Assembly: GCA_043754325.1 (NCBI GenBank)
Contig: JAYUVC010000184.1
Location: 29,872-93,871 of the forward strand
Source of the DNA: Hyphomicrobiales bacterium
GTDB lineage: Bacteria; Pseudomonadota; Alphaproteobacteria; Rhizobiales; Aestuariivirgaceae
Length of the DNA stretch: 64,000 nucleotides
Direction of reading: 5' to 3'
The translations under genes and the position numbers were made by a program. Below the pieces are notes generated by a model that did not search any database, had not been told where the DNA came from, and was given only the letters and a program-made list of their open reading frames with translations. This document shows, in pieces, positions 17,581-60,817 of this stretch; the first letter of the stretch is position 1, and each line of letters begins with the position of its first letter.

Positions 17581-17587
17581 CACGGTG

Positions 17588-23917: not shown

Positions 23918-24000
23918 GGCGACCTCCAGATGCTTGAACCATAGAGGTTGGTCGTCGTCAGTTAGAATTCAAGGGATTTAATGCATCGGGCGTCAAAAGG

Positions 24001-24092
24001 CCCTTCGAGGCCCGCAAGAGGGCGGGCACCTCAGGGTGAGGGAATACGAATGGTCCTCATGCTGAGGTGCGAGCCCTTTGCGAGCCTCGAAG
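24001..24092. repeat. Palindromic repeat, family C, copy 3 (opposite orientation)
   Basis: Reverse complement matches the 11214/13200 arms; lies just after the parE stop. Confidence 0.9.
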
Positions 24093-27828: not shown

Positions 27829-27940
27829 CACCCCCTCCCCCCTTCGGGGTACTCCCCCGGCAAGTGGGCCGAGGGAGAAATGATTGACTATCTCCCTCGG
27901 CTTTTGGGCCGGGGGAGTACGGCGAAGCCGGGAGGGGGTG
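27829..27940. repeat. Palindromic repeat, family B variant
   Basis: CACCCCCTCCCCCCTTCGGGGTACTCCCCCGG ... CCGGGGGAGTACGGCGAAGCCGGGAGGGGGTG, starting 2 bp after the hss stop. Confidence 0.85.
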
Positions 27941-27993
27941 TGTCCACGCGCTTCCATTCCAAATATGATTGTTGCACCCGTAGGAACCACACC

Positions 27994-30401: not shown

Positions 30402-30522
30402 GGGACCTCATCCGCCCTTCGGGCACCTTCTCCAACAAGAGGGTTGGAGAAGGGGCAGCGGGTTTCCCTTCTCCCCGCCCCCTTGCGTGGAGAAGGTGGC
30501 GCGAAGCGACGGATGAGGTTCC
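30402..30522. repeat. Palindromic repeat, family A
   Basis: GGGACCTCATCCGCCCTTCGGGCACCTTCTCC ... GGAGAAGGTGGCGCGAAGCGACGGATGAGGTTCC, abutting the dsbA stop and convergent with mfd. Confidence 0.9.
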
Positions 30523-36437: not shown

Positions 36438-36440
36438 AGC

Positions 36441-36552
36441 AAGGCCCCCCCTCCCCCCTTCGGGGTACTCCCCCAACAAGTTGGTGGAGATGCCTACGGC
36501 TAGTTGCTTCCCCAACTTGTTGGGGAAGTGCCCGAAGGGCGATGGGGGCCTT
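36441..36552. repeat. Palindromic repeat, family B (hybrid arms)
   Basis: Left arm resembles 27829 (CCCCCTTCGGGGTACTCCCCC). Right arm equals the 41212 arm (CTTCCCCAACTTGTTGGGGAAGTGCCCGAAGGGCGATGGGGGCCTT). Confidence 0.9.
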
Positions 36553-36554
36553 AC

Positions 36555-37271
36555 TTATTTCTTCCGTTGTACTTTCTTCGCAACCGCAATCTCCTTCTCC
36601 ACATTTAATGGTGCATCCGGGAACACCAATCCCATCGAGATCACCAGCTTCAAGCCATCCTCCACCGTCATATCCAAAACCTGTACTTCAGTTTCTTTCA
36701 CAAAGAACACATAGCCAGACGTGGGATTTGGCGTGGTAGAGACATAGACCGCATACATCTTCGTGCCCGGCTTCATGCCGATCTGGCCTGAATCCAGTTC
36801 ACGCGAAATAAACGCAACAGACCACGCATCGCGCCTTGGCCATTCCACCAGGCAAACCTTTTTGAAGCTCGCACCCTTCTCCGAAAACATCGTTTCGAAT
36901 ATCTGCTTCGAGCCCTTGTAGATTGACCGCACCACCGGCGTCCGGTTCACAAGGTTGTCCCACCAGCCGATGATGGTGCGGCCCACCAAATTCGCGCCGA
37001 GGAATCCCACCAGCGTGATGAGGGCGAGTGCGAAAACCAGTCCGGTGCCTGGTACCTTGAACGGGAGATAGTGATCAGGATTGTAATTGTTAGGCAGCAG
37101 CGGCTTTACCCATGAATCAAAAAAACCGATAAACCACACCGTCACCCACACCGTGATTGCGACGGGGGCGAGGATGACCAATCCTGTGAAGAAGTAACGG
37201 CGCAAGCGTCCAAACGAGGATTTGGCCACAGGTGCTTCGGGCTTGGTGATTGGAATGTTGTCACTGTTCAT
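36555..37271 (-). CDS. DUF502 membrane protein
   Basis: RYFFTGL..LAP, PVVRSIY...KQ, PTTPNPTSG-like STTPNPTSGY. Confidence 0.9.
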   Translation of the reverse strand: MNSDNIPITKPEAPVAKSSFGRLRRYFFTGLVILAPVAITVWVTVWFIGFFDSWVKPLLPNNYNPDHYLPFKVPGTGLVFALALITLVGFLGANLVGRTIIGWWDNLVNRTPVVRSIYKGSKQIFETMFSEKGASFKKVCLVEWPRRDAWSVAFISRELDSGQIGMKPGTKMYAVYVSTTPNPTSGYVFFVKETEVQVLDMTVEDGLKLVISMGLVFPDAPLNVEKEIAVAKKVQRKK

Positions 37272-41110: not shown

Positions 41111-41259
41111 GAAAGGCCCCCATCGCCCTTCGGGCACTTCCCCAACAAGTTGGGGAAGAACTGGTGCCGCCACCTCCCTCATCATGTTCAGGAGAGGTCG
41201 TTCATCGAGTCCTTCCCCAACTTGTTGGGGAAGTGCCCGAAGGGCGATGGGGGCCTTTC
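41111..41259. repeat. Palindromic repeat, family B: perfect 48-bp arms around a 53-bp unique core
   Basis: 41111-41158 is the exact reverse complement of 41212-41259. Confidence 0.95.
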
Positions 41260-41559: not shown

Positions 41560-43710
41560 TCAATTTGCCATGCGGCCACTTGTAGCAGTGCGGGCCCTTG
41601 GTTCATAAACCCATGGTCGCAAGCCCTGTGTTTCGCGGACATGCGCCACCTCGCCATCCGCAAAAACAGCATAGGCACCATTGCGCCAGACATCGAAGCG
41701 ATCAACAGTAACCTTGGAGCCCTTGCAGCGCCGCCGCAATGGTTCTTGCGAGACGAGGACATCGGCGTTCGGGCAGCGCTGCATTCCCAATGGTTGTTTG
41801 AGCATGAACGCTATTTTCAATCCTGATTGGGTCGCCTCGCAACGAACCAGAGAACATGTCCACCCCACACGTTTTGCAGCATTCTTGAATCCACCCGTAT
41901 CACCTGCCTGCGTCAACCAGCGCGACACTGATTCTGCCCCCTGTTTCGGACTGGCGGGAACCAGACCCAGTTCGGTCACCAAAGCCACATTGCCTGCGCG
42001 TTCATCGATCAGAAGCAAGGGTTGAGCGCCGCCGCGCGAGATTAATGCAATAGCCAATACCGCAAACGGAACTGCCAGCAGGCGCAGCCGCGTGATGGGC
42101 AAAAACAGGAAAGCTGACGCAAGCGCCAAGGCTGCTGCTGCATTCACATCGATCAAGGGAAGGCGCAGCCCGGAGCCCGGCAAACGCGCCACCCCATCAG
42201 ACACCAGCATGACCCCCTGCAAGCCCCACCCCATGAGTTTCAAGGGAATGGCATCCAGCCCCAAGGGCATCAACATGACGCCTGCCATGGCGGCTGGCAT
42301 GACGATCAGGCTGACAATGGGCAAAGCCAGGGCATTGGCCACAATGCCATAGGGTGCCAACCTGCCGAAGTGATGCATGGCAGGAATTCCCGACAGGCTG
42401 CCCGCCACAAGTGATGTTGCAAGCGAAGCTGCAGATCCCAAGGCGATGCGCCGCGTCCAATGCGCAACGAAACCGCCGCGATTGAGTTTTGTCGGTGCAG
42501 GCACCAGCTTTTTCCACCACACGAAGAAGGCGGCCAAACCCATGACCGCCATGAACGACATCTGGAAACTTGCGGCCAAAGCCTGTTCCGGCGACCACAC
42601 CAAAATCAATACAGCAGCCAATGCGAGATTGTGCAATGACAGCGCGGGGCGGTCCACCAGCACGGCGAAAAACACCACGGCAATCATGATGAATGATCGC
42701 TCCGTTGCAGCGCCGGAATCCGCCAGCAACATGTAAAGCAGGCCCACAAGAATTGCGAAGCCTGCGGCCCATTTTTTGATGGGGTATGTCAGGGCGAGTG
42801 TGGGTGACAGGGCCAGAAATGCCCGCAGTGTCCAGAATGCGCCGCCCGCCACAAGCGCCATATGCAGGCCCGAGATCGAGAGGATGTGAAACAAACCTGA
42901 CGCCTGTAAACTTTCGTTCATGCTGCGCGGAATTGAAGCGCGTTCTCCGGTGATGACCGCATCGGCAAAACTGCCAAGTGGCCCGCGAATGGCATCACGC
43001 ACACGGCTGCCGATTGCAGCACGCAAATCATGGAAGCTGCGCCTTACGACAAAACGCCAGGGAACCGGTTCGCTCAGAATCTCAACATCGGTTTTGCTGC
43101 GCCCAACAGCGCCGATGGACTGGAAAAACAATTGTCGGCCATAATCAAAGCCGCCGGGTTGTGCTGGCCTTGGCAGCGGTGCCAAATCTGCTGTCAGTTT
43201 CACTGTGTCACCGACATGGGGCAAAACATGTTTACCGGTAATTTGGACCAACACGCGGCGCGGGCGCTCAACTTCCAGCAAACCTGCGGCTTCAGTGATT
43301 TCGAGGTTCAGTGAAAACCGCAGCTTGGAGCGTACATCCACATCGACAACATGACCGATTATAGTTTGCATCGGCGCGTAAGCCCGCAGTAATGGTGTGG
43401 CCACCCATTGCGTGCGCAGTTCCGCCGTGGAAAATCCGAGAACAACAATCACCAGTATTTTTGCACCCTGCGGTGTGCGGGGCCACAGCAATGCGGCCAC
43501 GCAAAACAGCACAAGCGGGAGAGCCAGATATCCCGGTGGTTCCCGGTTCAGCGAAAAGTAAGTCCAGATCCCGACGACCAGAAGCAACGGGCTCCACACC
43601 ATGAGACGCTGGCTTTCAATGTCAAAAGCTTCCGCCCACCCCGCCATGCGGAGCAGTTGCCCCCCTTTGACGGGAAGTGACCATGTGCTATCCGCCTCCC
43701 CAACAGCCAT
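41560..43710 (-). CDS. comEC: ComEC/Rec2 competence protein
   Basis: DUF4131-like region, [25 protein letters not shown]; comEC-gltX-gltA synteny. Confidence 0.92.
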
Positions 43711-43752: not shown

Positions 43753-45186
43753 ATGTCATCGCCTGTTATGTCATCGCCTGTTATTACGCGTTTTGCCCCC
43801 TCGCCCACCGGCTACCTGCATATCGGCGGTGCCCGCACTGCCCTGTTCAACTGGGCCTACGCCAAAGGGCAAAACGGCAAGATGCTGCTGCGCATCGAAG
43901 ATACGGATCGTGAGCGTTATACAACGGGGGCTGTTGATGCCATTCTGGATGGACTGACATGGCTGGGGCTGACGTGGGATGGAGACGCCGTTTCACAATT
44001 TGACCGGGCTGACCGCCATCGGGATGTGGCGCATGATTTGGTGAAACGCGGCAAGGCCTATCATTGTTATTGCACGCCTGAAGAACTTAGCGCCATGCGC
44101 ACCAAGGCGGAAGCCGAAAAGCGCCCGATCCGCTATGACGGCACATGGCGGGACCGCGATGCATCAGAAGCGCCCGCAGATGTAAAGCCAGTCATCCGCT
44201 TCAAGGCTCCACAAGAAGGTGAAACCGTAATCAACGATCATGCCATGGGGCGCGTCGTCATCCCCAACAAGGATCTCGATGATTTGATCATCCTGCGCTC
44301 CGACGGCAACCCAACTTACAATCTCTCCGTCGTCGTGGATGACCATGACATGGGCGTCACCCACATCATCCGCGGTGTTGATCACTTGACGAATGCGGCA
44401 CGGCAAACACAAATCTATCTGGCCATGGATTGGCCCGTGCCATCCATGACACATGTGCCGCTGATCCACGGACCCGATGGTGCGAAACTTTCAAAGCGCC
44501 ACGGCGCCCTCGGCGTCGAAGCCTATCGCGAAATGGGCTATCTTCCCGCAGCGCTGCGCAACTATCTCGCCCGCCTCGGTTGGAGCCATGGCGATGACGA
44601 AATCTTTTCCACCGCACAACTCGTGGAATGGTTCGCCTTGGATGGCATCGGCAAGTCAGCTGCCCGTTTTGATTTTGCCAAACTGGAAAACCTCAACGGC
44701 CATTACATCCGCCACACCGAAGATGCTGAATTGCTGCAAGCCTTCCTCAGCTTCCTGCCCCACGTCTCAGGCGGTGCAGACATGCTCACCCGCATTGACG
44801 ACAGCATGAAAGTCAAACTCTTGAAGGCCATGCCCGGTCTGAAGGAACGCGCCAAAACCCTCGTCGAGCTCAAAACCTCAGCCGCATACCTGTTCGTGCA
44901 ACGCCCATTGGCCATGGACGAAAAAGCCAAGGCCCTGTTGAACGACGAAGGCAAAGCCGCCCTCGCAAGCCTGATCCCCGTCCTTTCATCCACCACCGAA
45001 TGGACCGCCGTAACCTTGGAAGCCGCAGTCAAAACCCACGTTGAAACCACCGGCCAAAAGCTGGGAAAACTCGCACAGCCCTTACGCGCCGCGTTGACAG
45101 GAACATCCACATCGCCAGGGATTTTTGATGTGCTGGAGGTGTTGGGGAGAGATGAGAGCTTGGGCCGGATTGGGGATCAGGCGTAG
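43753..45186 (+). CDS. gltX: Glutamate--tRNA ligase
   Basis: [33 protein letters not shown]. Alternative start 43768. Confidence 0.98.
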
Positions 45187-45219
45187 GGGACTGTTTGCTC
45201 TTTCTCGCAAACTGTCCCC
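45186..45219. repeat. REP-like hairpin (family E) downstream of RAYT
   Basis: GGGGACTGTTTGC-TCTTTCTC-GCAAACTGTCCCC (one T-T mismatch), preceded by GTA; overlaps the gltX TAG. Confidence 0.88.
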
Positions 45220-45231
45220 GAACTGCCCCCG

Positions 45232-45825
45232 TCAAACCACCGCAAATCGCCCCAGTGGTCTGCCACTCGTTTCACTCTTGCGAAGCGCATCCAATCGCGA
45301 TTTCGGCACCTCCCCACCAATGAAAGACGCAAAGTCGAGATAGCGTTGCAATACTGGTTTCACGTCAACCAGCTGATGGGGTTGGCCTGAAACATGCGCG
45401 TGAACGGATGAGTGTGGCCAATCGAAAATGGATGCTGCAATGCCGGCTCTCACTGGGTTTTGCGCTACATATCGTAGGGCATGCGCCAGATGTTCCTCGT
45501 CCATCGGCACAGAACCAAAACGCCCCTGCCACAAATGCCCGGTCCATTTGTGCCGCCAATTGATGAAGTTTGTGTATTTTCGGTGCGCATCGGCAAACAA
45601 TTCCCTCAAACCATTGGCATGGCGCGGCACCACAATCACGTGAACATGGTTGGGCATCAGGCAGTAGGCCAAAATTTTAGTCCCAGATTTTTCTGCGCCT
45701 TCGCCAAGAAACGCAAGATAGCGCGCGTAATCTCCATCTTCAAAGAACACCGGTTCGCGCCTGTTTCCCCGCTGGGTAACATGATGCGGCACATCGGGGA
45801 TGACAATACGGGCAATACGGGCCAT
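45232..45825 (-). CDS. REP-associated tyrosine transposase (RAYT, HUH Y1)
   Basis: [20 protein letters not shown] (HUH), [26 protein letters not shown] at 45825 with GGAG SD. Confidence 0.92.
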
Positions 45826-45843
45826 GGACAGAACTCCAGATCC

Positions 45844-45952
45844 GGGACAGTTTACTTGAGATCGGGGACAGTTTACTTTTCCGATGAGGTGTATGTCCAT
45901 AGTAAGACAATCAACAAAAGTAAACTGTCCCCGATCTCAAGTAAACTGTCCC
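45844..45952. repeat. Perfect 37-bp inverted repeat with 35-bp spacer upstream of RAYT
   Basis: Each arm is a tandem pair of GGGACAGTTTACTT with a 21-bp period. Confidence 0.95.
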
Positions 45953-46017
45953 TACCCGTCAGCCACATTGACCTTCTTGTTGCGCTGCAATATCATGCCC
46001 TGAAATGGGAGATCATC

Positions 46018-47313
<1,296 letters not shown>

Positions 47314-47319
47314 GGGACC

Positions 47320-47790
47320 TCACACCCTCTTCCCGTCAATCAACATCGCCCCAATCTCAGCCTCGGCCACCTTCTTGCCCTCCACATGCGCCTCTGCTGA
47401 ATACTTCCATACCGGGGCCCGTTTCTGCATCAGCTTCACATGGAAAAGCACCTGGTCCCCCGGCACCACAGGTTTTCTGAATCGACACTTGTCGATTGAC
47501 ATGAAGAACACCAGTTTTCCGGCGTCACCTTCGCCCAGGTTTTCCAGCACGATCGCGCCTGCCGTTTGCGCCATGGCTTCCACCAGCAGCACGCCCGGAA
47601 ACACCGGTTGACCGGGAAAGTGGCCCTGGAAAAACGGTTCGTTGATGGTGACGTTCTTGATGGCGGTGCCACTGCCCTCGCCGTCGACATTGATCAGGCG
47701 GTCAATCAACAGAAACGGATAACGGTGCGGCAGCAACTGCATGATGCGGATGATGTCGAGGGTTTTGCCAGTGGCGGGCGTGTCGGTCAT
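47320..47790 (-). CDS. fabZ: 3-hydroxyacyl-ACP dehydratase
   Basis: [35 protein letters not shown]. Start MTDTP with GAGG SD. Confidence 0.97.
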
Positions 47791-47800
47791 GATGGTCCTC

Positions 47801-47829
47801 AAAACAAAAAGGCGGGAAAAAATCCCGCC
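47801..47829 (-). terminator. Rho-independent terminator between bamA and fabZ
   Basis: Minus strand GGCGGGA-TTTTT-TCCCGCC followed by TTTTTGTTTT. Confidence 0.75.
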
Positions 47830-47855
47830 CCTTGTAGCTGATTGCGCAGAGAATT

Positions 47856-50210
47856 CTAGAAGCGTGTGCCGATCGAGAAGCGGACGATTTCCTTCTCGTC
47901 GAACTTCTTTTTGAGGATTGGATAGGCGGCTTCGAGACGGAGCGGACCAAATGGCGACTGCCAGATCACGCCTGCACCGACTGAGGCACGGAAGCCCATG
48001 GAGTCGAGTACAGAGCATGCGCCCGTAAATGTTCCATTGCCCGGGCAGTTTGCTCCGCCATTGGCAACCGACCGCTGATCCGTTCCAAACACCGTACCAA
48101 AATCCGAGAACACCGTTCCGCTGATGCCCCAGGCCTCCGGAATGCCAATCGGGAAATTCGCTTCGAGTGTACCGATGGCGTAAGTCTGGGCACCAATTGA
48201 ATCCATGCCGCCGTCATTGCCGATCTGTTTTGGACCAATGCCGGACTGGCTGAAACCGCGGAAGCTGTCAGCACCTTTGAAGAAACGGTCCTGCAGCGGA
48301 ATATTCCGATTGCCGAAGGATTGCTGATGACCAGCATTGCCTTCAATTTTCACAACCACTTTTTCGTCAAGCAATGGGATGAAATACCAGGCGTGACCTT
48401 CAACCGACGCATATTGCGTGTTGCCGCCAAGACCTGCAACTTCAGTTTCAAGTTCGGCGCGCAAACCAGATGCCGGGTTCAATGGATTGTCGAGGTCGTC
48501 ATAGATGTAGGTCGCTGACAGCGCCGATTTCCAGTCCTTGCCTTGCTGTTCAATAATGGCAGGGGAAGACGAGGCGATGGTCACACCTTTGGTGACGCGA
48601 TGCGCCAACAGGTATTTGAAATTCAAAGACGAGAATTCATCCAGCGCAAAGCCTGCGCGCAAAGCGCCGCCAATTTGTTCGCTGGTATAGGAGGATGCGC
48701 TCTTGTTATCGACGCGGGTTGCAAACAGGTCAACGCCAAGCGACACTGGCGTTCCCATGAAATAAGGTTCGGTGAAGCTGAAATCCACCTGCTGCTTTTT
48801 GAAACTCAGTTGGGTATTCAGCTTCACATTATAGCCGCGGCCAAACAGGTTGCGCTCTTCAAGTCCGACGGAGCCAACAATGGTTTCAACTGACGAATAA
48901 CCAATCGAGAATGTCACGGAGCCTGTGGCTTTTTCCGCGACTTCGATGACCAGCACCACCTTGTCAGCGGCAGAACCTTCTTCTTCGCGGAAGTCGACTT
49001 TTTCGAAATAGTCCAGTGCAGTGAGGCGGCGGCGGGCGCGTTCGACCAGGGTGCGGTTATAGGCATCACCTTCGTACAGGCGCAATTCGCGGCGGATGAC
49101 ATCATCGAGGGTGCGGGTGTTACCGATGATGTCGATGCGTTCCACATAGGTGCGTGGACCTTCGGTGATGTTATAGGTCAAATTGACGGTGGCGTTCGAC
49201 GGGTTGCGGTCCACCTTCGGCTCAACCCTGGCAAAGACAAAGCCCTGGTTCGAAGCTTCGAGCGTCAATTTTTCAACCGACTTGTCAACCTTCGCCGCAT
49301 TGTAAGTGTCACCTACACCGGTTGACACTTTGCGGGCCAGGGCATCAGGGTTCAGGTTATTGTCGCCAATATTCACGGCCACATCGGCGATGGAATAACG
49401 CGGGCCTTCGGTGACCACAAAATCCACGAGGAAGCTTTGGCCATCGTCAGTCAAGCGCGCATCTGCCGAAACGACATCCACATCGGCGTAGCCATTTTTC
49501 AGATAGTAACGGCGCAACAATTCCTTGTCATATTCAAGGCGGTCAGAATCATAAGTGGTGTTGCGCAGAAAGAAGAACAGCTTTGAATGTTCCTTGGTGG
49601 CGATCACGTCACGCAGGTCGCCGTCGCTGAAGGCGTCGTTGCCGGAAAAGTTGATCTGTTCGACTTGCGTCTTGCCGCCTTCATTGACTTCGAACACGAG
49701 GTTGATGCGGTTTTCAGGCAGGCGAATGAGTTTGGGTGCAACACGCACATTGTAGAAGCCCTGCTTCTGGTAAACCGAAAGAATGCGCTTGGTGTCGGCG
49801 GCGACGCGGGCCTTGGTGTAGATGATGCTTTGGCGCACCTCCACTTCCTTCAGCAAGGTATCGTCGTCAACATCCTCGTTGCCTTCAATGTTGACCAAAT
49901 TGATCAGCGGATTTTCGGACACGGTGACAACCAGTGAACCACCTTGCCGCACCACAGCAACGTCCCTGAACAGACCGGTTTGAAACAAGGCCTTGATTGA
50001 GGCGTCAATCGCCTCATCGCTGAACTGGTCGCCCACGCCCAGTTGCATGTAGGATAAAATGGTTTCGTTCTCGACGCGCTGATTGCCGTTGAACACCACG
50101 TTGTTCACTGTTGCTGCCATGGCAACTTGCGAAAACACCCCCGGCGCAGCCACAGGCAGCACGCCGAATACCAACGCCAAAACCAAACAATATATCAATC
50201 GCATACGCAT
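47856..50210 (-). CDS. bamA: Outer membrane protein assembly factor BamA
   Basis: POTRA repeats ([19 protein letters not shown]), FRGF, SPFGP, C-terminal FSIGTRF. Confidence 0.97.
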
Positions 50211-50330
50211 CAAATCGCTACTCTCGCAACTCCGGGAGCCGCCCCCCGCAGCAAATCAGGCCACGCGTTGTCTTTTAGCCAGTCTGACCCGTTATGCAAA
50301 TGAAACATCTGGGCAATTTCGTGGCTGCAT

Positions 50331-51479
50331 TCAGGTACCGAACAGCACATTTGCCACCCTGCCCGTATCATTGAACAAGCCCAGAAGCATAAGCATGACG
50401 ACGCACGTGAAACCAATGCGGTAACCCCATTCCTGTGCCAGCGGACCCAGCGGTTTTCCACGCAAGGCCTCAAGGGCGTAAAACACCAAGTGTCCACCAT
50501 CCAACATCGGGATTGGCAAAAGGTTAACAATGCCTATGGATACGCTTAAAAACGCAATAAAAGATATGAAAGTCATCAACCCGTTAGACGCAGCATCGCC
50601 AGCACCCTTGCCAATGCTGATGGCACCACCGATGCGTTTGATGCTTTCTTCGCCGACGAAGAGTTTTTTCAGGGTTTTTCCTGTCATTGCGATGATGAAC
50701 CACGTGCGTTCGGCACCCTTTTGCAGGGCTATGTGCGGTGGCTGGCGCTCCAGCAGCGGTTCATCGCCACGCTTGTTATGGCCTACTCCCATTTGGCCAA
50801 AACGGAATGTGCCGCCGAAACCATCTTTGACCTCTCTGGCTTTGGCAAGCACGTTGAGTGTCATCGACACGCCATCGCGCTTGATGCCGACGACAAGTGT
50901 TTCGTCCGGCCGGAACATGACCATTTCCGGAATCGATTCGAAATTTGTGACAGCAACGCCGTCAATGCTGGTAATTTCGTCACCAGGTTTGATTCCTGAA
51001 ACTTCCGCAGGAGAACCCTGCATGACCGTGTCGACAATCGGACGCATGTAGCTTGTGCCAATCACCATGTAACCCACGGCAAACAGCAAAATTGCCAGTA
51101 TGAAGTTGGCAAAAGGCCCCGCAGAGACAATGGCGGCGCGTTGCAAAACTGGTTGCGCTTGCAGGCTGCCAGCGGTGCTTTTGGCCTCTTCGCTCAGATC
51201 GGGTTTGCTCGCTGCATTGGCGTCGCCTGCAAATTTCACATAGCCGCCGATGGGCCAGGGCGCCAGCTTCCAGCGGGTGCCGCGCTTGTCGGTGTAACCC
51301 CAGATTTCCTTGCCGAACCCCACAGAAAACACATCGGATTTCACGCCGCACCAGCGGGCTACAATGTAATGGCCGAATTCATGCACAAACACGATCAGCA
51401 AAAGCGCCACAATAAAGGCTGCCACATTGAACAGCACACCCAAGGGTGAAACGGTTTGGATGGCTTCAAAAAAACTCAT
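50331..51479 (-). CDS. rseP: Site-2 protease RseP
   Basis: HEFGH, PIGGYVK, AGP.AN, PDZ domain, NLLPIPMLDGGH. Alternative GTG start 51491. Confidence 0.95.
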   Translation of the reverse strand: MSFFEAIQTVSPLGVLFNVAAFIVALLLIVFVHEFGHYIVARWCGVKSDVFSVGFGKEIWGYTDKRGTRWKLAPWPIGGYVKFAGDANAASKPDLSEEAKSTAGSLQAQPVLQRAAIVSAGPFANFILAILLFAVGYMVIGTSYMRPIVDTVMQGSPAEVSGIKPGDEITSIDGVAVTNFESIPEMVMFRPDETLVVGIKRDGVSMTLNVLAKAREVKDGFGGTFRFGQMGVGHNKRGDEPLLERQPPHIALQKGAERTWFIIAMTGKTLKKLFVGEESIKRIGGAISIGKGAGDAASNGLMTFISFIAFLSVSIGIVNLLPIPMLDGGHLVFYALEALRGKPLGPLAQEWGYRIGFTCVVMLMLLGLFNDTGRVANVLFGT

Positions 51480-51533
51480 TGTCTCATTCACTCCGCATTC
51501 TGGCGCTCTGGTTATTACAGGATTGTGTTCCTG

Positions 51534-51560
51534 TTAAGGCGACATTTACCAAATCTTAAC
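51534..51560. promoter_or_regulatory. Tandem CtrA-like half-sites upstream of rseP-bamA
   Basis: TTAA-N7-TTTA-N7-TTAAC. Confidence 0.4.
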
Positions 51561-51601
51561 CAGAACTGGATGGCATTTGCTTCAAATTCCGGTGGCTATG
51601 G

Positions 51602-52444
51602 TTACCAGAGCAGCAGGCCCTGGGCCAGGCTGCTGGTAGATCTCACAAATCCGATGATTGCCGCCACAACGCCAGCGAAGACCAAACCATCGACCCGGTC
51701 CAGAACACCGCCATGACCGGGAATCAAATCGCCTGAATCCTTCAAGTCAAATTGGCGTTTCAGGGCGCTTTCGAAAATGTCGCCAAGTTGCGCCACAACA
51801 GCCAAGGCGGCTGCAACGCCCGCAAGTGCAATCCATGACGGCAAAAAACAGGCTGCATAAATCCCGGACACCAACGCTGCACCTGCCATGCCGCCGAGCA
51901 ATCCGGCCCAGGTCTTTTTTGGCGACAAAACGGGTGCCAGTTTCGGGCCGCCTATGATTCTCCCGGCAAAATAGGCAAAGGTGTCAGTGGCCCACACCAC
52001 CAGCATCAGCCACATGATGGCGTGAATGCCCCAAACATTGTCGGACCGGAGAAGCACCAAAGCCAGCACCGGCAAGGCTACATAAGGAATTCCGGCAGAA
52101 GCAAACAAGGACTTGTCGCGTTGAAAATAAAAAATCGCCGCGATACCGATTGCGGTGATGGCGAGCACGATTCCGATTGTCGGCAATACACCAATAGTTT
52201 GCGGCAACAATGCCGCGCACAACACAGCTGCGGCATGCAGCGCAAACTGCAAGGAACTGCGTTTGTGAACAATGTTGGTCCATTCGTGCGCCATCAGCAG
52301 GCCGAGAAACGCCATGAACAGCTCAAACCAGACGCCGCCCATCCAGATGTCAAGCAGCACCGCCGGAATCAGAATCAGCGCTGACGTGGCACGGACTCCG
52401 AGATCAGCCCATTTGCCTTTCATCGCGACAGCCGATTCAGTCAT
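51602..52444 (-). CDS. cdsA: Phosphatidate cytidylyltransferase
   Basis: WATDTFAYF.G, SPKKTWAG, KDSGDLIPGHGGVLDRVD. Confidence 0.97.
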   Translation of the reverse strand: MTESAVAMKGKWADLGVRATSALILIPAVLLDIWMGGVWFELFMAFLGLLMAHEWTNIVHKRSSLQFALHAAAVLCAALLPQTIGVLPTIGIVLAITAIGIAAIFYFQRDKSLFASAGIPYVALPVLALVLLRSDNVWGIHAIMWLMLVVWATDTFAYFAGRIIGGPKLAPVLSPKKTWAGLLGGMAGAALVSGIYAACFLPSWIALAGVAAALAVVAQLGDIFESALKRQFDLKDSGDLIPGHGGVLDRVDGLVFAGVVAAIIGFVRSTSSLAQGLLLW

Positions 52445-53172
52445 GCAGATTTTACTTTCAAGCCGCCAAAACGGCGTTCGCGGCCCCGATAATCCTCAAT
52501 GGCCCGGTCCAATATGGTTCTGTCAAAGTCCGGCCAGTATTCGTCGATGAAGACAAATTCAGTGTAAGCACATTGCCAGAGCAGAAAATTAGAAATGCGT
52601 TCTTCACCGCCTGTGCGGATGAGGAGGTCCGGGTCTGGCCATTCGGCGGTGTCGAGTTTGGCGGCCACCGTGTCCATGGAAATGTTTTGCGGTTGTAATC
52701 TACCCGCAGCGACGTCATGGGTCAGCTTCTGGATGGCACCCAGGATTTCCTGCCGTCCGCCATAGTTGAACGCAACAACCAAAGTCATGCCGGTGTTGTC
52801 AGCCGTCAGACGTTCAGCATCCTCAATCAGTTTGATGATGGTCTTGTCCAAACCTTCGCGAATGCCGATCATGCGGATGCGCACACCTGTGGTGTGAAGT
52901 TCGGCCACGTCCTGGCTCACAAAGCGCCGGAACAGCTGCAACAGAAAACTCACCTCGGCCTTGGGGCGAGACCAGTTTTCGGTTGAAAAAGAATAAACCG
53001 TCAGCACGTTCACACCGATTTCAGCGGCGGCCTTTACCGTGCGGCGCAGGGCTTCGATGCCTTGCTTGTGCCCCGCAGTCCGCGGCAGTCCGCGTGCGGC
53101 AGCCCAGCGGCCATTGCCATCCATGATGATGGCAATGTGGCGGAGCGGCAATGGCAAGCGGGTGTGCGACAT
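52441..53172 (-). CDS. uppS: Isoprenyl transferase (undecaprenyl diphosphate synthase)
   Basis: IMDGNGRW, FSTENWSR, NYGGRQE, IRTGGEERISNF, RERRFGG. Confidence 0.97.
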   Translation of the reverse strand: MSHTRLPLPLRHIAIIMDGNGRWAAARGLPRTAGHKQGIEALRRTVKAAAEIGVNVLTVYSFSTENWSRPKAEVSFLLQLFRRFVSQDVAELHTTGVRIRMIGIREGLDKTIIKLIEDAERLTADNTGMTLVVAFNYGGRQEILGAIQKLTHDVAAGRLQPQNISMDTVAAKLDTAEWPDPDLLIRTGGEERISNFLLWQCAYTEFVFIDEYWPDFDRTILDRAIEDYRGRERRFGGLKVKSA

Positions 53173-53184
53173 TGAAGTGTTGTA

Positions 53185-53751
53185 TCAGCCCTGCATGATT
53201 TCGATTTCCTTGGCCTTCGTCGCGGTGTCGATATCCTTGATCGTATCATCCGTCCATTTTTGAACTTCATCGGCCTTGTTCTTGTGCTCGTCTTCTGACA
53301 TCAGCTTGGCCTTTTCGAGCAGCTTCAGATGGTCCATGGCGTCGCGGCGAACGTTGCGGGCCGCCACTTTGGCTTTCTCGGAATATTGGTGGGCAACTTT
53401 CACCAGTTCCTTGCGGCGGTCCTGCGTCAGGTCCGGCATACGGAGGCGAATGACCGAGCCTTCGGTTTGCGGGTTGAGGCCGAGGTTTGAGGCGTGAATG
53501 GCTTTTTCAACTGCGGCCACAAGGCCACGATCCCAGACGCTGATTTGCAACAGTCGCGCTTCCGGCACGGACACTGATGCAACCTGGGTCAACGGCATGT
53601 TTGCACCATAAGCATCCACCTGGATCGGATCGAGCAAAGTGGCCGAGGCGCGGCCCGTGCGCAGGCCACCGAAGTCATGTTTCAGCGATTCAGTTGCACC
53701 GTTCATGCGGCGCTTGATATCGGGGGCATTGAAGGGTTCTGGAGCGGCCAT
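53185..53751 (-). CDS. frr: Ribosome recycling factor
   Basis: RTGRAS, LGLNP, LT.DRRKELVK, AARNVRRD. Confidence 0.97.
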   Translation of the reverse strand: MAAPEPFNAPDIKRRMNGATESLKHDFGGLRTGRASATLLDPIQVDAYGANMPLTQVASVSVPEARLLQISVWDRGLVAAVEKAIHASNLGLNPQTEGSVIRLRMPDLTQDRRKELVKVAHQYSEKAKVAARNVRRDAMDHLKLLEKAKLMSEDEHKNKADEVQKWTDDTIKDIDTATKAKEIEIMQG

Positions 53752-53766
53752 GGGATTTTTCCTTGT

Positions 53767-54483
53767 TCAGTTCTTGGTGACGCGAGTGAACTGGCCTTGG
53801 CCCGACAGGACCCGGGCCACATTCCCCGCTTCGCGGATTGAAAATACTACGACTGGCACATCACTGTCACGCGTCAGTGCAATGGCGGCAGCATCCATGA
53901 TTTTAAGGTTTTTGGACAGCACTTCGTCAAAGGTGATGCTGTCATAGCGTCTGGCCGTGGAATCTTTCTTCGGATCGGCAGAATAGACTCCATCCACACT
54001 GGTGCCCTTGTAGAGCGCATCGCATTTCAGTTCAGCGGCCCGCAAGGCGGCACCTGTGTCTGTGGTGAAGAATGGAAGCCCCGTGCCGCCGGCACAAATC
54101 ACCACCCTGCCCTTTTCAAGGTGATGAATACCTTTGGAGGCAGAATAGGTTTCGCAGATGGTGGGCATGGCAATGGCCGAAAGCACGCGCGCATCGCAGC
54201 CCTTGCCCTTCAATACGCCTTGCATGGCAAGCGCATTCATGACGGTTGCCATGATGCCCATGTGATCAGCCGACACCCGGTCCATGCCCTTGGCGGCACC
54301 CGCAATGCCCCGGAAAATATTGCCACCACCGATCACGAGAGCGATTTCAACTCCGGCTTTTTGGCAGTCAAGCACTTCGTCGGCCACGCGGCCTACCGTG
54401 GCCAGATCAATGCCGTAGGGCTGGTTTCCCATGAGCACTTCACCGGAGATTTTGAGGAGAATACGTTTTTCTTTGGCAACCAT
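53767..54483 (-). CDS. pyrH: UMP kinase
   Basis: [38 protein letters not shown]. Confidence 0.98.
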
Positions 54484-54594
54484 CTGGAAGTCCTGAACGA
54501 TTCGGTAGAGTTGAACATGATTAGCGCTATCGACTTAACCACACATTAGGAGACGATGTGGTACATTTTCCTTTTAATTTTGAAGGGCAACATC

Positions 54595-55161
54595 ATGCAA
54601 ATGCCAAATTATTTTTTTGGACTTAATGGCCGTATTGGTCGTGGCCAGTGGTGGAAAGCCCAGCTTTCCATGTTACTGCTTCTTTTTGTAGCGTTCATTG
54701 TGCCGATGATTTTTGGGAAATCACGACTCACAGCTGGTTCGCCACCCGATGTTGCTATGAACTTGTTTGTGGTTGCCTTTGCTGTTTTGGTATCGATAGT
54801 TGTAAATGTCTGTACGACTGTAAAACGTTATCACGACCGTGGAAAAAGTGGTTGGTGGTTTTTATTTCAGTTCGTGCCCATAGTCGGCGGTTTGTGGCAG
54901 CTCATCGAGTGTGGCTTCTGCTCCGGTGACGAAGGTGACAATGAATACGGCCCGCCACCTGGTGCCGGGCGTCGCATGGCATCATTGAAGAGTGAAGTAT
55001 CGGGCATGGCAGGATCATCGCGTGTACTTGCAAAACTCGATGACGACTATCTCGCCAATTATGCAAAAAACATGGCGACGCAGCAGGCGACCCAACAAAT
55101 GGCGGCTACCAGCAGTTTCGGGCAAAACAACAATGGCCGTCCTGCTTTTGGAAAACGTTGA
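54595..55161 (+). CDS. DUF805 membrane protein with C-terminal extension
   Basis: GRIGR..W, VKRYHDRGKSGWW, G..GDNEYGP. Hand-counted lines about 40-45% GC. Alternative start 54556. Confidence 0.85.
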   Translation: MQMPNYFFGLNGRIGRGQWWKAQLSMLLLLFVAFIVPMIFGKSRLTAGSPPDVAMNLFVVAFAVLVSIVVNVCTTVKRYHDRGKSGWWFLFQFVPIVGGLWQLIECGFCSGDEGDNEYGPPPGAGRRMASLKSEVSGMAGSSRVLAKLDDDYLANYAKNMATQQATQQMAATSSFGQNNNGRPAFGKR

Positions 55162-55171
55162 ATATCGGACT

Positions 55172-55259
55172 GGGGACTGTTTGCTCTTTCTTGCAAACTG
55201 TCCCCGAACTTCCCGGAAATCGCAGACCAGGGACAGCTTGCGATAGAGCAAGCAGTCCC
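55172..55259. repeat. REP doublet (REPIN-like), family E, cognate to the RAYT flanks
   Basis: 55172-55214 matches 45186-45228 at 41/43 nt. A second, inverted copy at 55230-55259 (GGGACAGCTTGCGATAGAGCAAGCAGTCCC). Confidence 0.9.
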
Positions 55260-55265
55260 TATTTT

Positions 55266-56189
55266 TTATGCGGTACCAGACATTTTCGCAACTTCGGCGG
55301 CAAAGTCGTCTTTACCTTTTTCAATGCCTTCACCCAGCTGCATGCGCACGAAAGCCTTCAGCAGCAACGTAGAACCGGACTTTTTGCCCGCTTCTTCAAC
55401 AGCCTGAGCAACGGTCTTTGAACCGTCGTGCACGTAAGGCTGTTCCAGCAGACAGTTTTCCTTGGCGAAGGACTTCAGGCCGGAGGCCACGATCTTTTCC
55501 ATGACGTTGGCGGGTTTGCCCACATTCTTTTCTTCGAGAATGGCAGCTTCACGGGCCAGTACTTCTTTCGGCACCGAGTTGATGTCGAGAGCAACCGGAT
55601 TGGTCGCGGCAATATGCATCGACAGCAAGCGGCCAAAGCCTGCGATTTCATCCTTGCTGCCAGTGCCTTCAAGTGCCACGAGAACGCCAATCTTGCCCAT
55701 GCCGGGTGCAGCCTGGTTATGGACATAGGACGCCACTACGCCGTCGGTAACTGACAGGCTGGCGGTGCGACGCACCGTCATGTTTTCGCCGATGGTGGCC
55801 ACCATTTCGGCCACGTAGGCGGCCACTTGATGTGTGGAACCCGGATATTGCATGGTCTTCAACGTTTCAGTTGAGCTGTCGGCATCGAGCGCCAGCTTGG
55901 TGATTTCAGCCACCATGGCCTGGAACTTTTCATTGCGGGCAACAAAGTCGGTTTCGGAGTTGACTTCAACCGCTGCACCCGTGGTGCCTTTGGTGATGAC
56001 GCCAACCAGACCTTCTGCGGCCACACGGGTGGATTTCTTGGCGGCCTTGGACAGGCCCTTGGCGCGCAGCCAATCAACGGCCGCTTCCATTTCGCCATTG
56101 GTGGCAACGAGGGCTGCCTTGCAGTCCATCATGCCGACGCCGGTTTTTTCGCGCAAATCGCGCACGAGTGCAGCTGTGATTTCAGCCAT
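55266..56189 (-). CDS. tsf: Elongation factor Ts
   Basis: LREKTGVGMMDCK, EVNSETDFVA, MHIAA, LGEGIEK. Confidence 0.98.
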   Translation of the reverse strand: MAEITAALVRDLREKTGVGMMDCKAALVATNGEMEAAVDWLRAKGLSKAAKKSTRVAAEGLVGVITKGTTGAAVEVNSETDFVARNEKFQAMVAEITKLALDADSSTETLKTMQYPGSTHQVAAYVAEMVATIGENMTVRRTASLSVTDGVVASYVHNQAAPGMGKIGVLVALEGTGSKDEIAGFGRLLSMHIAATNPVALDINSVPKEVLAREAAILEEKNVGKPANVMEKIVASGLKSFAKENCLLEQPYVHDGSKTVAQAVEEAGKKSGSTLLLKAFVRMQLGEGIEKGKDDFAAEVAKMSGTA

Positions 56190-56211
56190 GTCTATCTCCT
56201 GAATGGGAAAC

Positions 56212-56235
56212 GGGCCCGCGATTGTCCGCGGACCC
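56212..56235 (-). terminator. Hairpin between rpsB and tsf (possible partial terminator)
   Basis: Minus strand GGGTCCGCG-GACAAT-CGCGGGCCC with a short T run. Confidence 0.4.
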
Positions 56236-56257
56236 TGATGTCACGTTGTGAAGTGGC

Positions 56258-57016
56258 TTAAGCCGCTGGAACCAATGCTTCAGCAGGCAATTCTTCCATG
56301 GCGCCAACGTCAATGCCTGACGATGTGGCGGATTTCGAAATGCCTTCGATGATGGCTTTGCCAACCAGTTCGCAATAGAGCGCCACGGCACGGGCCGCGT
56401 CGTCGTTGCCTGGAATTGGGTAGGTAATGCCAGCTGGGTCAGAGTTGGTGTCGATGATGGCCACAACCGGAATGCCCAGGCGATTGGCTTCCTTGATGGC
56501 GATCTGTTCCTTGTTGGTGTCGATGACGAACAGGATGTCTGGAACGCCGCCCATGTCCTTGATGCCGCCCAGTGCCTTTTCGAGCTTGTTGCGTTCACGG
56601 GTCTTGTCGAGCAATTCGCGCTTGGTGATGCCAGCGCCGTTCGAGTTCACAACTTCATCAAGAACGCGAAGGGTCTTGATCGAGTTTGAAATGGTTTTCC
56701 AGTTGGTGAGCATGCCACCCAGCCAGCGCGAGTTTACGTAATACTGGGCTGACTGCTTTGCAGTCACTGCGATTTGTTCTTGTGCCGAACGCTTGGTGCC
56801 CACGAACAGCACGCGGCCACCCTTGGCAACGGTGTCAGTGATGGCGTTCAGGGCCTGATGCAGCAAGGGAACTGTCTGCGACAGATCCATGATGTGAATG
56901 CCATTGCGCGAGCCGTAAATGAACGACTCCATTTTGGGATTCCAGCGATGTTTTTGATGTCCGAAGTGAACGCCAGCTTCAAGCAGCTGGCGCATGGTAA
57001 ATGGTACCGAGGCCAT
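56258..57016 (-). CDS. rpsB: 30S ribosomal protein S2
   Basis: [29 protein letters not shown]. Confidence 0.99.
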
Positions 57017-57745: not shown

Positions 57746-57972
57746 ACTCCGTTCCCCTTGTGGGCAGGACTATCGCATATGGGGAAAAAGCGACCTCATC
57801 AGCCCTTCGGGCAGCTTCTCCAGAGGAGAAGCGACGCGGTTTGGGACCTTCTGAAATGCCTGATACTGGGGGGATATCTTCAATCCAGTCGCTTCTCCTC
57901 TGGAGAAGCTGCCCGAAGGGCTGATGAGGTCTTTCCTTGGCCATATCCGATAGCCCTCCCCAAAAGGGGGGA
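57746..57972. repeat. Extended family-A palindromic element (MITE-like)
   Basis: Perfect 44-bp arms 57792-57835 / 57888-57931, a 52-bp core, and about 40 bp more of degenerate outer arm on each side. Confidence 0.88.
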
Positions 57973-58004: not shown

Positions 58005-60737
58005 CTAACAATCGCCATTCGGGCAAGTGTCTTCTTGCGGTGGAAGGGGAAGGCGGGGGAAGCGCGGGAACCTTGGTGGCCGTCTTCGCGGTGGTTCTTC
58101 AATTTCCGGGATTTCCTCTTCGAACACGGGTGGCTCCTCTTCAATGATCACCCGAGGTGGACGGGGACGATTGACACGTGTCGGGGGCTTTTTCTTCGGT
58201 TTTTCCAAAACTGGTTTAGGCTTGGGCTTTACCGGTTTCAGCAACTGAACCGGCGGTTTTGACTTCACAGGCTCAACTTTTTTAACGGGTTGTTTGACAA
58301 CTTTCGGCGGATCGCAGGCGGCAAGTTTTGGCTCTTGCTTCACGCGTTGCAACAGGCCACCCAGACGGGCGCGCGCGATGTCGGCAAACACTCCGTCGGG
58401 GAAGGCATCGAGATAGGCGAGATAAGCTTTGTCCGCGCCCGACTTGTTGACATCATTCCAATAGCGCAGTTCGTCTTCCATTCCTGATCCGCCAGGTTGG
58501 GGAAATGAACCATCAGCAACAGGCAGCGGGAGTGTGCCTTCATCCGACTGTCTGTGCGCCCAAGTTTTGCGCGACAGCAACAACAAGGTTTCATCGATGC
58601 CGTCAGTTGTCTGGGATGCGCAGGGACCAACCAGATTGACAAAATCCCGCATGGCGCTGCGTTTTGCATCTTCCGGCAACAATGCCAGACGGCGCAGCAG
58701 GTCAGCGTCGCCTTGAAATTTGTCCGAAGCCAGGGCGAGGGACGTGTACCAAACCGCTTTTACCGGGTTGCGCAGATCACCTGGGCCTTGCGCGTAAATC
58801 CAGCTCAGGTCGGCGGTGCCATCCTGATTGCCGCGTTCGGCCCCCAGTTCGTACCATTTGATGGCTTGTCGCAGGTCTTTGGGCATACCATTGCCGTTGA
58901 AATAGAGCGCTCCGATATCGGTTGGGGCTGTGGGGTGTCCAGCGAAGGCTGAGCCTTTTTTGCGGGTCCGGTTTTTGACGCTGCGCGTGACTGCCGCATC
59001 AATGTAGCCAACGGCACGTTTCGGACTGGCTTTGACAGCGCCGCCGTAGAGATAAAGGCTGCCGATTTCGTCCAGGGCATCGGTGTTGCCGAGTTCGGCT
59101 GCATGCTTGAGAATGGCGACGCCCTGTTTTGGATCGGCCTTCATGCCAATGCCTTTTACGAGGTTGCGGCCAAAGGCCAGCAGCGCAAAGGGGTCGCCCT
59201 TGTCTGCGGCCAGTTTGAAAAAGGCATTGGCCTGCTCCAGGTTTTTTACAACTCCTTGGCCTTGTGTGGCCATAATGCCCAACTGATGGTTTGCCCTCAC
59301 ATAGCCTGCATCGGCAGCCTGCAGGATCAAAATACGGGCAGCTTTGACATTGCCCGCAATCAGTTGCGCGCGGCCCAGCAGATAGATGTAACGAATATTT
59401 TCCGGCTGTTCATCGACCGCTCTCTGGCAGGCCACCAAGGCTTGCGTTATGTCGATTTTGTCAAGCTCAACGCCTTCGCCGACGCCCTGCATATCCAGTG
59501 GTTCCGCCGCGAGCAGATCGCACTCATGCAGGCGTTGCCTGATTTTAATTTGAACGGGCAGCGCAGAACCATCGGCAGCGATGGCGGCAGTTTCAATGAT
59601 TATGGATGGAACGAGAAGTGCTGCGCTGTTTGCGTCCCTGAACACCTGCACTTCGGTTGAAGGTTCAAAATTGAAAGTCTTGAATTTGGCGAAATCAACA
59701 ACAGTCCCTTCCGACAGGACTTGATCATCGATGGACAAGGTGCCTGTCACCGGCATTTGCATCAGCTTGTAGACTTTGGCTTCCGGCAGGGATTGCGCCG
59801 ACTGTTCGTTGAGCGCGCGTTGCGGCCCTGCGCCTATCGTCACAGGCCCCGCCAAGACTTGACGGGTCACATCGATGGTCTGGATTTCCGCAAGCGACTT
59901 GGTCATTGCTGGCGGGTTGGTGGCAAGTGCCTTTTGGGCCGAACCATTCAGAAAAACCGGTTTGACGAGTGAACTGTTGATCCATGGGCGTTGGCTTTGT
60001 TTTGTTGCCTCCCAAACATCTGCTGTCACTTGCATCAGTGCTGACTGCACATCCACATTCTGGGAGAATGAATGCTTGATCACCGCAGTTGTGAAAGGTG
60101 AATTGTCGCCGGAACCATCGAGCGCCACTTTGCCGGGTTCGGTGGCATAGGCAATCAGGCTGCCCACCGGGCTTTTTTGTTCGGCCAGGCCTTTTCCTGC
60201 CGATTTTTCCTTGTCGTCAATACCCAACAGGAAAGCGCGGTCATTGAAGGGGTTGTCGCGGCAGGCATCAAGGTAAACCAGCTGGGCCTGCGAGTTGCTT
60301 TGCATGTAGAGCAGTATGGTCTGCAAACTATAGGTTTGGGTTTCAAGATCCTGCGGCTGATCCAAAGTGGCATCAACCGGAATGATCCGGTTTTCGCCAC
60401 CCACTTCAATGCCGTGGCCGGAATAATAAAACAGGCTGATATCGGCGCCATTGAGCGAACGCGCATAACGCCCGACAGCCCGTTCCAATTCCAGCCGTGT
60501 CAGGTCGAAAGCGGTGACAACTTCAAAGCCTTGTTTGCGTAACGCGTTCGATACAGCTTCAGCATCTTTTCGGGGATTGGGGAGTTGGGCAACCGATTGA
60601 TAAGCACCGTTGCCGACGACCAAGGCCACACGTTTGGTCCCGGCTTCAGCAAGACCAGCTCCGAAAAGTGCGGACAGGAAAATGGACAACAGTGCGAAGA
60701 GTCTTGCGCACTTCTGTGAAGATAATTGACGACACAC
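58005..60737 (-). CDS. Secreted caspase-like (peptidase C14) protein with Sel1 repeats and Pro/Lys-rich tail
   Basis: RVALVVGNGAY, LPNP..DA, FYYSGHG, YLDACRDNPF, IAYATEPG, several Sel1 repeats. GTG start 60737 with AAGGA SD, followed by a signal peptide. Confidence 0.85.
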   Translation of the reverse strand: MCRQLSSQKCARLFALLSIFLSALFGAGLAEAGTKRVALVVGNGAYQSVAQLPNPRKDAEAVSNALRKQGFEVVTAFDLTRLELERAVGRYARSLNGADISLFYYSGHGIEVGGENRIIPVDATLDQPQDLETQTYSLQTILLYMQSNSQAQLVYLDACRDNPFNDRAFLLGIDDKEKSAGKGLAEQKSPVGSLIAYATEPGKVALDGSGDNSPFTTAVIKHSFSQNVDVQSALMQVTADVWEATKQSQRPWINSSLVKPVFLNGSAQKALATNPPAMTKSLAEIQTIDVTRQVLAGPVTIGAGPQRALNEQSAQSLPEAKVYKLMQMPVTGTLSIDDQVLSEGTVVDFAKFKTFNFEPSTEVQVFRDANSAALLVPSIIIETAAIAADGSALPVQIKIRQRLHECDLLAAEPLDMQGVGEGVELDKIDITQALVACQRAVDEQPENIRYIYLLGRAQLIAGNVKAARILILQAADAGYVRANHQLGIMATQGQGVVKNLEQANAFFKLAADKGDPFALLAFGRNLVKGIGMKADPKQGVAILKHAAELGNTDALDEIGSLYLYGGAVKASPKRAVGYIDAAVTRSVKNRTRKKGSAFAGHPTAPTDIGALYFNGNGMPKDLRQAIKWYELGAERGNQDGTADLSWIYAQGPGDLRNPVKAVWYTSLALASDKFQGDADLLRRLALLPEDAKRSAMRDFVNLVGPCASQTTDGIDETLLLLSRKTWAHRQSDEGTLPLPVADGSFPQPGGSGMEDELRYWNDVNKSGADKAYLAYLDAFPDGVFADIARARLGGLLQRVKQEPKLAACDPPKVVKQPVKKVEPVKSKPPVQLLKPVKPKPKPVLEKPKKKPPTRVNRPRPPRVIIEEEPPVFEEEIPEIEEPPRRRPPRFPRFPRLPLPPQEDTCPNGDC

Positions 60738-60817
60738 TGTATAGCTTCCTTTCGAGGAAGCCCCCACTTCTCCGGCTAGCACAATACTTCTGATTGTTCC
60801 AACTGGATGTGACGTAG

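Follow-up and report, generated by a model that had tools for sequence, protein, structure and literature searches.

A 64-kb stretch of an Aestuariivirga-like contig of the Hyphomicrobiales, assembled from a sediment metagenome and referred to here as the window, lacks four genes of lipid A synthesis, lpxD, lpxA, lpxI and lpxB, from the positions on either side of fabZ at which most of the other alphaproteobacterial loci that we compared carry them. We find that this loss at the locus, which consists of two deletions around a retained fabZ gene, is secure and is fixed in the whole clade to which the window belongs. The balance of the sequence evidence tips towards a loss of the whole Raetz pathway of lipid A synthesis, in which case the two deletions would be its local footprint. 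Diderm Proteobacteria are generally held to need lipid A and almost all to have it, with the sphingomonads as the standard free-living exception.

The bamA-fabZ-gltA junction in the window and in its clade

The coordinates and gene identities of the junction in the window are confirmed (Table 1). The stop codons of gltA (TAA, 47311-47313) and fabZ (47320-47322, TCA on the plus strand) are 6 bp apart, and 65 bp lie between the stop codon of bamA (47856-47858) and the ATG of fabZ (47790-47788), gaps too short to hold remnants of the missing genes. The identity of fabZ is firm, as the equivalog model exceeded its curated cutoff, and the encoded protein, which is required for fatty-acid synthesis, is 75-95% identical across Aestuariivirga loci and less so in the deepest members of the clade. 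We searched the window by tblastn with LpxD, FabZ, LpxA, LpxI and LpxB from a canonical Rhodomicrobiaceae locus (L020), the identity of the four Lpx queries, and not that of FabZ, having been checked with NCBIfam. No match to LpxD, LpxA, LpxI or LpxB was found in the 64 kb at E < 1e-3, while the FabZ query matched at 1.8e-61.

NCBIfam and Pfam scans of the other open reading frames (ORFs) of the window that are 90 aa or longer, except for two of 127 and 103 aa, found no lipopolysaccharide (LPS) gene, lptA-G and msbA included, and the window holds no serine palmitoyltransferase/ceramide or other substitute-lipid gene; what the scans do show is housekeeping and transport genes. Both glmS and glmU are present, and these serve peptidoglycan synthesis too. 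The window also encodes BamA, RseP, a DipM-like protein, an L,D-transpeptidase and a lytic transglycosylase, and with BamA and these envelope-biogenesis genes in place an outer membrane is still built. The preliminary description of the window, made from the sequence letters, had held that the four lpx genes are absent without remnants, that the gap between bamA and fabZ contains a terminator, that fabZ is kept and that bamA implies an outer membrane; all of this stands, with fabZ retained throughout the clade.

The terminator-like element is an 11-pair G+C-rich hairpin at 47833-47807, followed by the T-run TTTTTGTTTTG, and the 75-nt segment that includes the spacer (47786-47860) has a folding energy of -21.9 kcal/mol (z = -2.06). 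Since the T-run runs directly into the fabZ ribosome-binding site, GAGGA, and leaves no space for a promoter of its own, fabZ is probably expressed either by partial read-through from bamA or from a promoter within bamA. The spacer measures 63-105 bp in nearly all members of the clade, and the position of the hairpin and T-run is kept in most of them. The stems themselves vary, from GGGCGGGA/TCCCGCCC in the shallow (Aestuariivirga-proper) lineages to CGGACGG/CCGTCCG in most of the deeper ones. A hairpin that is constant in position and changing in sequence indicates that the junction is old, maintained and under selection, and that it is neither a recent deletion nor an assembly join.

To define the clade, we took the best 80 matches from each of three BamA-anchored scans, together with two exact-protein look-ups; the in-group comprises the 48 distinct related loci among the matches listed whose BamA is at least 48% identical to that of the window. 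Thirty-five of these loci can be judged, in that they have a complete bamA and at least 600 bp downstream of it. fabZ lies no more than 250 bp from bamA in 33 of the 35, and the remaining two are rearranged: in one (L009, 12380-14876) dsbA and an SBP_bac_5 gene, a pair located at 27880-30401 in the window, come after bamA, and in the other (L246, 2247-2567) gltA does, with no fabZ. None of the 48 loci has a tblastn match to LpxD, LpxA, LpxI or LpxB (E < 1e-3; roughly 20 kb or less around bamA). Where the contigs extend far enough, gltA, gltX and comEC usually come next, as in the window. The lpx-less junction is carried by contigs of 3.96 Mb (L012, NZ_JASGKP01), 2.92 Mb (L040, NZ_JASGGV01), 3.41 Mb (L306, GCA_016710435.1) and 1.63 Mb (L011). 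Independent Pfam gene calls for GCA_016710435.1 and for a Joint Genome Institute (JGI) metagenome contig give the series Omp85, FabA-like, citrate synthase, tRNA-synt_1c and Competence, from which the LpxD, LpxI and LpxB families are missing.

Because the same junction is found in all 33 judgeable loci that are not rearranged, the loss is old and fixed and does not stem from assembly. A chimeric join or a binning error might have been suspected, as the source contig, 103,984 bp long, belongs to the assembly of a sediment metagenome. However, 33 independent assemblies, produced in different studies with different technologies, share the junction; the multi-megabase L012 and L040, with 'ont' in their isolate names, are among them. 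Logan contigs of two independent runs contain 95-96% of the sampled words of 46000-51000. An artefact is thus so improbable as to be negligible, and we reject it on the strength of this replication.

The relatives of the window BamA are found in Genome Taxonomy Database (GTDB) species-representative genomes labelled Aestuariivirga or Hyphomicrobiales, the closest being 96% identical among the matches listed. Short Logan contigs from a sediment metagenome are the one other place in which the exact proteins of the window were found. Metagenome-assembled genomes (MAGs) labelled Anderseniella, Rhodobiaceae and Parvibaculaceae also fall within the lpx-less group, so the clade extends beyond the named Aestuariivirga. 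In published work, A. litoralis has Rhodoligotrophos as its sister (PMC11092082). The common ancestor of this large Hyphomicrobiales clade lost lpxD from the bamA-fabZ interval and lpxA-lpxI-lpxB from the fabZ-gltA interval, with fabZ staying in place, and the spacer upstream of fabZ became a short terminator or attenuator hairpin abutting the fabZ ribosome-binding site.

The canonical cluster and other loci without lpx genes

To place the junction in context, we compared it with 101 other alphaproteobacterial loci that have at least 5.5 kb downstream of bamA (the outgroup). The order expected in the preliminary description, rseP-bamA-lpxD-fabZ-lpxA-lpxI-lpxB convergent with gltA-gltX-comEC, is indeed the common one: in 78 of the 101 loci bamA is followed, with or without skp, by lpxD-fabZ-lpxA-lpxI-lpxB, and in most of these 78 then by convergent gltA-gltX and by comEC. 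The canonical spacings are ~1.1 kb from bamA to fabZ and ~3 kb from fabZ to gltA. The window shares with the canonical cluster the order and orientation of rpsB, tsf, pyrH, frr, uppS, cdsA, rseP and bamA and of gltA, gltX and comEC, as well as the slot and strand of fabZ, but it differs in having no lpxD, lpxA, lpxI or lpxB and spacers of 65 bp and 6 bp instead.

The outgroup loci fall mostly into two states, with 78 carrying all four lpx genes, 12 carrying none and only 11 partial. The partial loci lack lpxD alone (six: L056, L059, L067 (Azospirillum), L073, L090 and L098, three of them Azospirillum), lpxB alone (four: L072, L074 (Methyloceanibacter), L061 and L097, two of them Methyloceanibacter) or lpxI together with lpxB (one). 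Another Methyloceanibacter locus (L104) retains lpxB. These partial rearrangements resemble the window in that lpx genes are missing beside bamA and fabZ, but the Azospirillum and Methyloceanibacter loci keep three of the four genes, whereas the window clade has none. Azospirillum, Magnetospirillum, Caulobacter, Maricaulis, Xanthobacter, Ancylobacter and Parvibaculum, all of which are known to make LPS, keep at least three of the four lpx genes at this locus.

Loci without any of the four genes recur in several separate BamA groups outside the clade of the window, and the recurrence, which extends to cultured strains, is a new point. When shorter contigs are counted too, the lpx-less outgroup lineages include a Dongiaceae-like group (with the isolate Dongia mobilis CGMCC 1.7660), a Defluviicoccus-like group, Geminicoccaceae (with isolate 1502E), Reyranella, a Kiloniellales MAG, several other MAGs and two MAGs labelled Sphingomonadales. 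The loci are L049, L053, L062, L070 (Dongia mobilis); L095, L068; L263, L265, L267, L269, L272 (Geminicoccaceae); L284 (Reyranella); L114; L257; L270; L285; L266; L281; L304 (Govanella unica); and L305, a metagenome contig with a Luteithermobacter BamA. Many of these loci have gltA-gltX-comEC after fabZ. Cultured Govanella unica has bamA-skp-fabZ-glyoxalase with no lpx family, and so does a marine-metagenome contig that carries the exact BamA of cultured Luteithermobacter gelatinilyticus. The Defluviicoccus-like locus L068 is lpx-less except for an N-terminal fragment of LpxI directly after fabZ (13588-13965; residues 10-133 of 304, 36% identity, E = 1.5e-15), which looks like decay in place.

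The preliminary description had likened the window to LPS-lacking Sphingomonadales, a comparison that we made with the two MAGs labelled Sphingomonadales (L266 and L281). These do show bamA-skp-fabZ without lpx genes, but their BamA, 79% identical to that of Govanella unica, places them near Govanella, Luteithermobacter and Emcibacter and not with the true Sphingomonadaceae. Whichever of the two it is, LPS loss or wholesale relocation of the cluster is recurrent in the Alphaproteobacteria.

Loss or relocation of the lipid A pathway

Several observations speak for loss of the whole pathway. Both flanks of fabZ have been emptied, and the gene that was kept is the one with a second essential role; the same lpx-less end state has been reached independently in several lineages. 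The distribution of full and empty loci is bimodal (78 and 12, with 11 partial), which favours loss of the pathway over piecemeal relocation: rapid decay of a dispensable pathway predicts such bimodality and piecemeal relocation does not. We also count for pathway loss the LpxI fragment of L068, which looks like a remnant of it, and the retention of at least three of the four genes in all of the sampled genera that are known to make LPS. The lipid-A-less lineage proposed in the preliminary description is thus partly supported.

If the four lpx genes, or a second cluster acquired horizontally, were located elsewhere in these genomes, normal lipid A and LPS would be made and only the gene order would have changed. 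We regard such a relocation as a serious possibility, if on balance a doubtful one. Local loss and partial relocation of single genes do occur, as the six outgroup loci without lpxD only and the four without lpxB only attest, and Azospirillum, which has lost lpxD from the locus, is an LPS maker. The in-group evidence comes from the bamA region, leaving room for lpx genes elsewhere, and lpxC, lpxK, waaA, kdsA/B, lpt and msbA sit at other loci, lpxC normally following ftsZ and lptB normally preceding rpoN. Moreover, ordinary-looking Gram-negative lineages for which no envelope oddity has been reported (Dongia, Geminicoccaceae, Defluviicoccus, Reyranella, Govanella and Luteithermobacter) share the lpx-less locus. 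All of these points weigh against pathway loss, although the last cuts both ways: so many unremarkable lpx-less lineages mean either that LPS loss is far commoner than believed or that relocation of the cluster is common. On the other hand, relocation would have to clear both flanks of fabZ without moving fabZ itself and to reach this end state independently in five or more lineages, and few intermediates lie between the full and the empty state. No lpx match was found in any in-group sequence examined, which is mostly the same region repeated in 48 genomes. None of the best 120 relatives (of 8000 scored) of a Hyphomicrobiales LpxB query, down to 59% identity, traced to an in-group contig, a weak result that is uninformative either way, as a relocated in-group Lpx protein would rank behind thousands of sequences from other Hyphomicrobiales.

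Fatty acid and lipid data from related bacteria bear on the same choice. Two neighbouring cultured genera contain 3-hydroxy (3-OH) fatty acids, with 7.8% C14:0 3-OH in Rhodoligotrophos appendicifer and 2.6% C18:0 3-OH in Kaustia (PMC8289202, Table S5), which again favours relocation over loss, and these acids may derive from lipid A or from ornithine lipids. Aestuariivirga is among the genera listed as lacking shc, the gene for squalene-hopene cyclase (PMC12583986), so hopanoids are unlikely there. We found no paper that ties Aestuariivirga or the other lpx-less lineages to an absence of LPS, and LPS genes are not among the subjects of the genomics paper on Aestuariivirgaceae or of its supplement (PMC8555084).

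Retention of a lipid A-like glycolipid made by non-orthologous enzymes would also render the canonical genes dispensable. LpxH, LpxI and LpxG are an established precedent for non-orthologous steps in this pathway, and there is nothing more direct than this precedent in favour of such retention. We know of no replacement for LpxA, LpxD or LpxB in any organism, and NCBIfam and Pfam scans of the 64-kb window revealed no candidate acyltransferase or disaccharide synthase, which makes this explanation very unlikely.

A weaker supporting sign for pathway loss comes from the divergence of BamA and RseP. Between shallow and deep members of the clade, BamA is 58.5% and RseP 51.4% identical, compared to 78-80% for GltX, Frr, GltA and FabZ; thus, BamA and RseP have diverged about twice as much as the other four proteins. 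Between other Hyphomicrobiales families, BamA (56.5%) and RseP (59.4%) diverge at much the same pace as GltX (63.5%) and Frr (66.6%). The fast divergence in the clade would fit a change in the constraints on envelope biogenesis. Against this, a comparison of conserved positions found no convergent BamA changes shared among the lpx-less lineages. Separately, one close relative (L003) differs from the window far more in RseP (57% identity) than in BamA (89%) or Frr (96%).

Two known systems show how an alphaproteobacterium can live without lipid A. In Sphingomonas and other Sphingomonadaceae that lack LPS, the outer membrane is built with glycosphingolipid (Kawahara 1991; Kawasaki 1994; both cited in PMC9393093). 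The window clade resembles them in comprising free-living alphaproteobacterial diderms that keep BamA and the rpsB...rseP-bamA block, and the candidate state, with no Raetz-pathway genes and a retained fabZ, is the same. It differs in being known as lpx-less at the bamA-linked locus alone, in belonging to an independent lineage, the Hyphomicrobiales, and in having no skp between bamA and fabZ. The second system is Caulobacter crescentus, in which a delta-lpxC delta-fur strain lives without lipid A given anionic sphingolipids (PMC9393093). There too an alphaproteobacterium is viable without lipid A when it has another anionic outer-membrane lipid, but this is a laboratory suppressor state with all lpx genes kept (locus L302 is canonical), while the window clade as a whole has lost the genes from the locus in nature.

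Under pathway loss, the free-living diderms of the clade would build a BamA-dependent outer membrane with another lipid in its outer leaflet. We put forward tentatively, with slightly less than even confidence, that the Aestuariivirgaceae, together with their relatives, form a second radiation of free-living Alphaproteobacteria that has lost lipid A altogether, independently of the first, and that LPS loss is recurrent in environmental Alphaproteobacteria. If this is true, it would be a new independent case of natural lipid A loss in a common environmental Hyphomicrobiales clade (freshwater, soil and sediment) of at least 45 species-level genomes, and thus a natural experiment at the level of a family. 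Such a case would bear on how BamA-dependent outer membranes function without LPS and on the nature of the substitute lipid. It would also show what the change does to permeability, to the receptors of phages, to sensitivity to polymyxin and to the endotoxin signals of environmental samples. LPS loss would then be a recurrent event (Dongiaceae, Geminicoccaceae/Defluviicoccus, Reyranella and the Govanella/Emcibacter-like group) and not a curiosity of Sphingomonas. Cultured Dongia mobilis (NZ_SNYW01), Govanella unica (GCA_027920805.1), Luteithermobacter gelatinilyticus and Aestuariivirga litoralis (KCTC 52945; GCF_003234965.1) provide direct experimental handles. Even if the pathway has been relocated, the survey is useful for the bimodal 78/12/11 distribution and for the cultured strains that it names.

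Gene layout, repeats and other features of the window

Table 1. Features of the window, with coordinates, strand and supporting evidence
Feature	Position	Strand	Evidence and remarks
comEC	41560..43710	-	ComEC N-terminal domain TIGR00360, above cutoff; outer flank, position kept in relatives and outgroups
gltX (glutamate-tRNA ligase)	43753..45186	+	TIGR00464, 504 bits
REP-associated tyrosine transposase (RAYT) gene with flanking REP (repetitive extragenic palindromic) palindromes	45186..45952 (gene 45232-45900)	-	NF047646, 66 bits, below cutoff of 80; repeats D11, I9
gltA (citrate synthase)	46021..47313	+	TIGR01798, 769 bits; convergent on fabZ
gltA-fabZ spacer	47314..47319		6 bp between stop codons, direct reading; lpxA-lpxI-lpxB (~3 kb) here in canonical genomes
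fabZ (3-hydroxyacyl-acyl carrier protein (ACP) dehydratase)	47320..47790	-	TIGR01750, 194.1 bits (cutoff 155.15); NF000582, 191.8 bits (cutoff 113)
bamA-fabZ spacer	47791..47855	-	65 bp, terminator-like hairpin; lpxD (~1 kb) here in canonical genomes
bamA (outer-membrane protein assembly factor)	47856..50213	-	TIGR03303, 729 bits, residues 35-785
rseP (site-2 protease)	50331..51491	-	TIGR00054, 284 bits
cdsA	51602-52444	-	NCBIfam
cdsA, uppS, frr, pyrH, tsf, rpsB (conserved upstream flank)	51602..57016	-	ORFs; tblastn synteny; Pfam gene calls in relatives
DUF805 gene within upstream flank	54556-55161	+	
Palindromic repeat sites	17479-17581, 20628-20738, 30385-30518, 36426-36555, 41111-41259, 57754-57969		
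Palindromic repeat sites, further	11205-11309, 13192-13293, 23995-24078		

The RAYT element is inserted between gltX and gltA, is not at that position in relatives and is unrelated to the absence of the lpx genes. It is flanked by GGGGACTGTTTGC...GCAAACTGTCCCC palindromes, a second palindrome copy lies at 55172-55214, and among the loci compared the element is confined to the genome of the window. The intergenic regions also carry dense palindromic repeats, often as paired inverted copies, with the core CATCNGCCCTTCGGGCANCTTCT and a second family, CCCTCACCCTGAGGTGCCCGCC... (Table 1). Among the matches listed, the exact CATCNGCCCTTCGGGCANCTTCT core is found in diverse bacteria, including Rhizobium, Devosia, Mesorhizobium, Xanthomonas, Lysobacter and even Planctomycetes.

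One such repeat may bear on the junction itself. The end of gltA, the 6-bp spacer and the 3' end of fabZ (47301-47332; TAAGGGACCTCA...) resemble the left end of a CATCNGCCCTTCGGGCANCTTCT-core repeat (30389-30420; L003:12903), and close relatives (L002-L004) have a full repeat element, their fabZ and gltA standing about 125-140 bp apart. Trimming of such an element may have left the 6-bp junction.

Two further features of the window are recorded here. There is no dxr between cdsA and rseP (51492-51601) in the window or its relatives, while dxr is present at this position in the Govanella and Luteithermobacter loci (L304 and L305, 5600-6835), and the canonical locus L020 has a gap of matching size. 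Finally, 58005-63448 encodes a protein of 974 aa that combines a caspase (Peptidase_C14) domain with Sel1 repeats and, next to it, a DUF2339 membrane protein of 876 aa.

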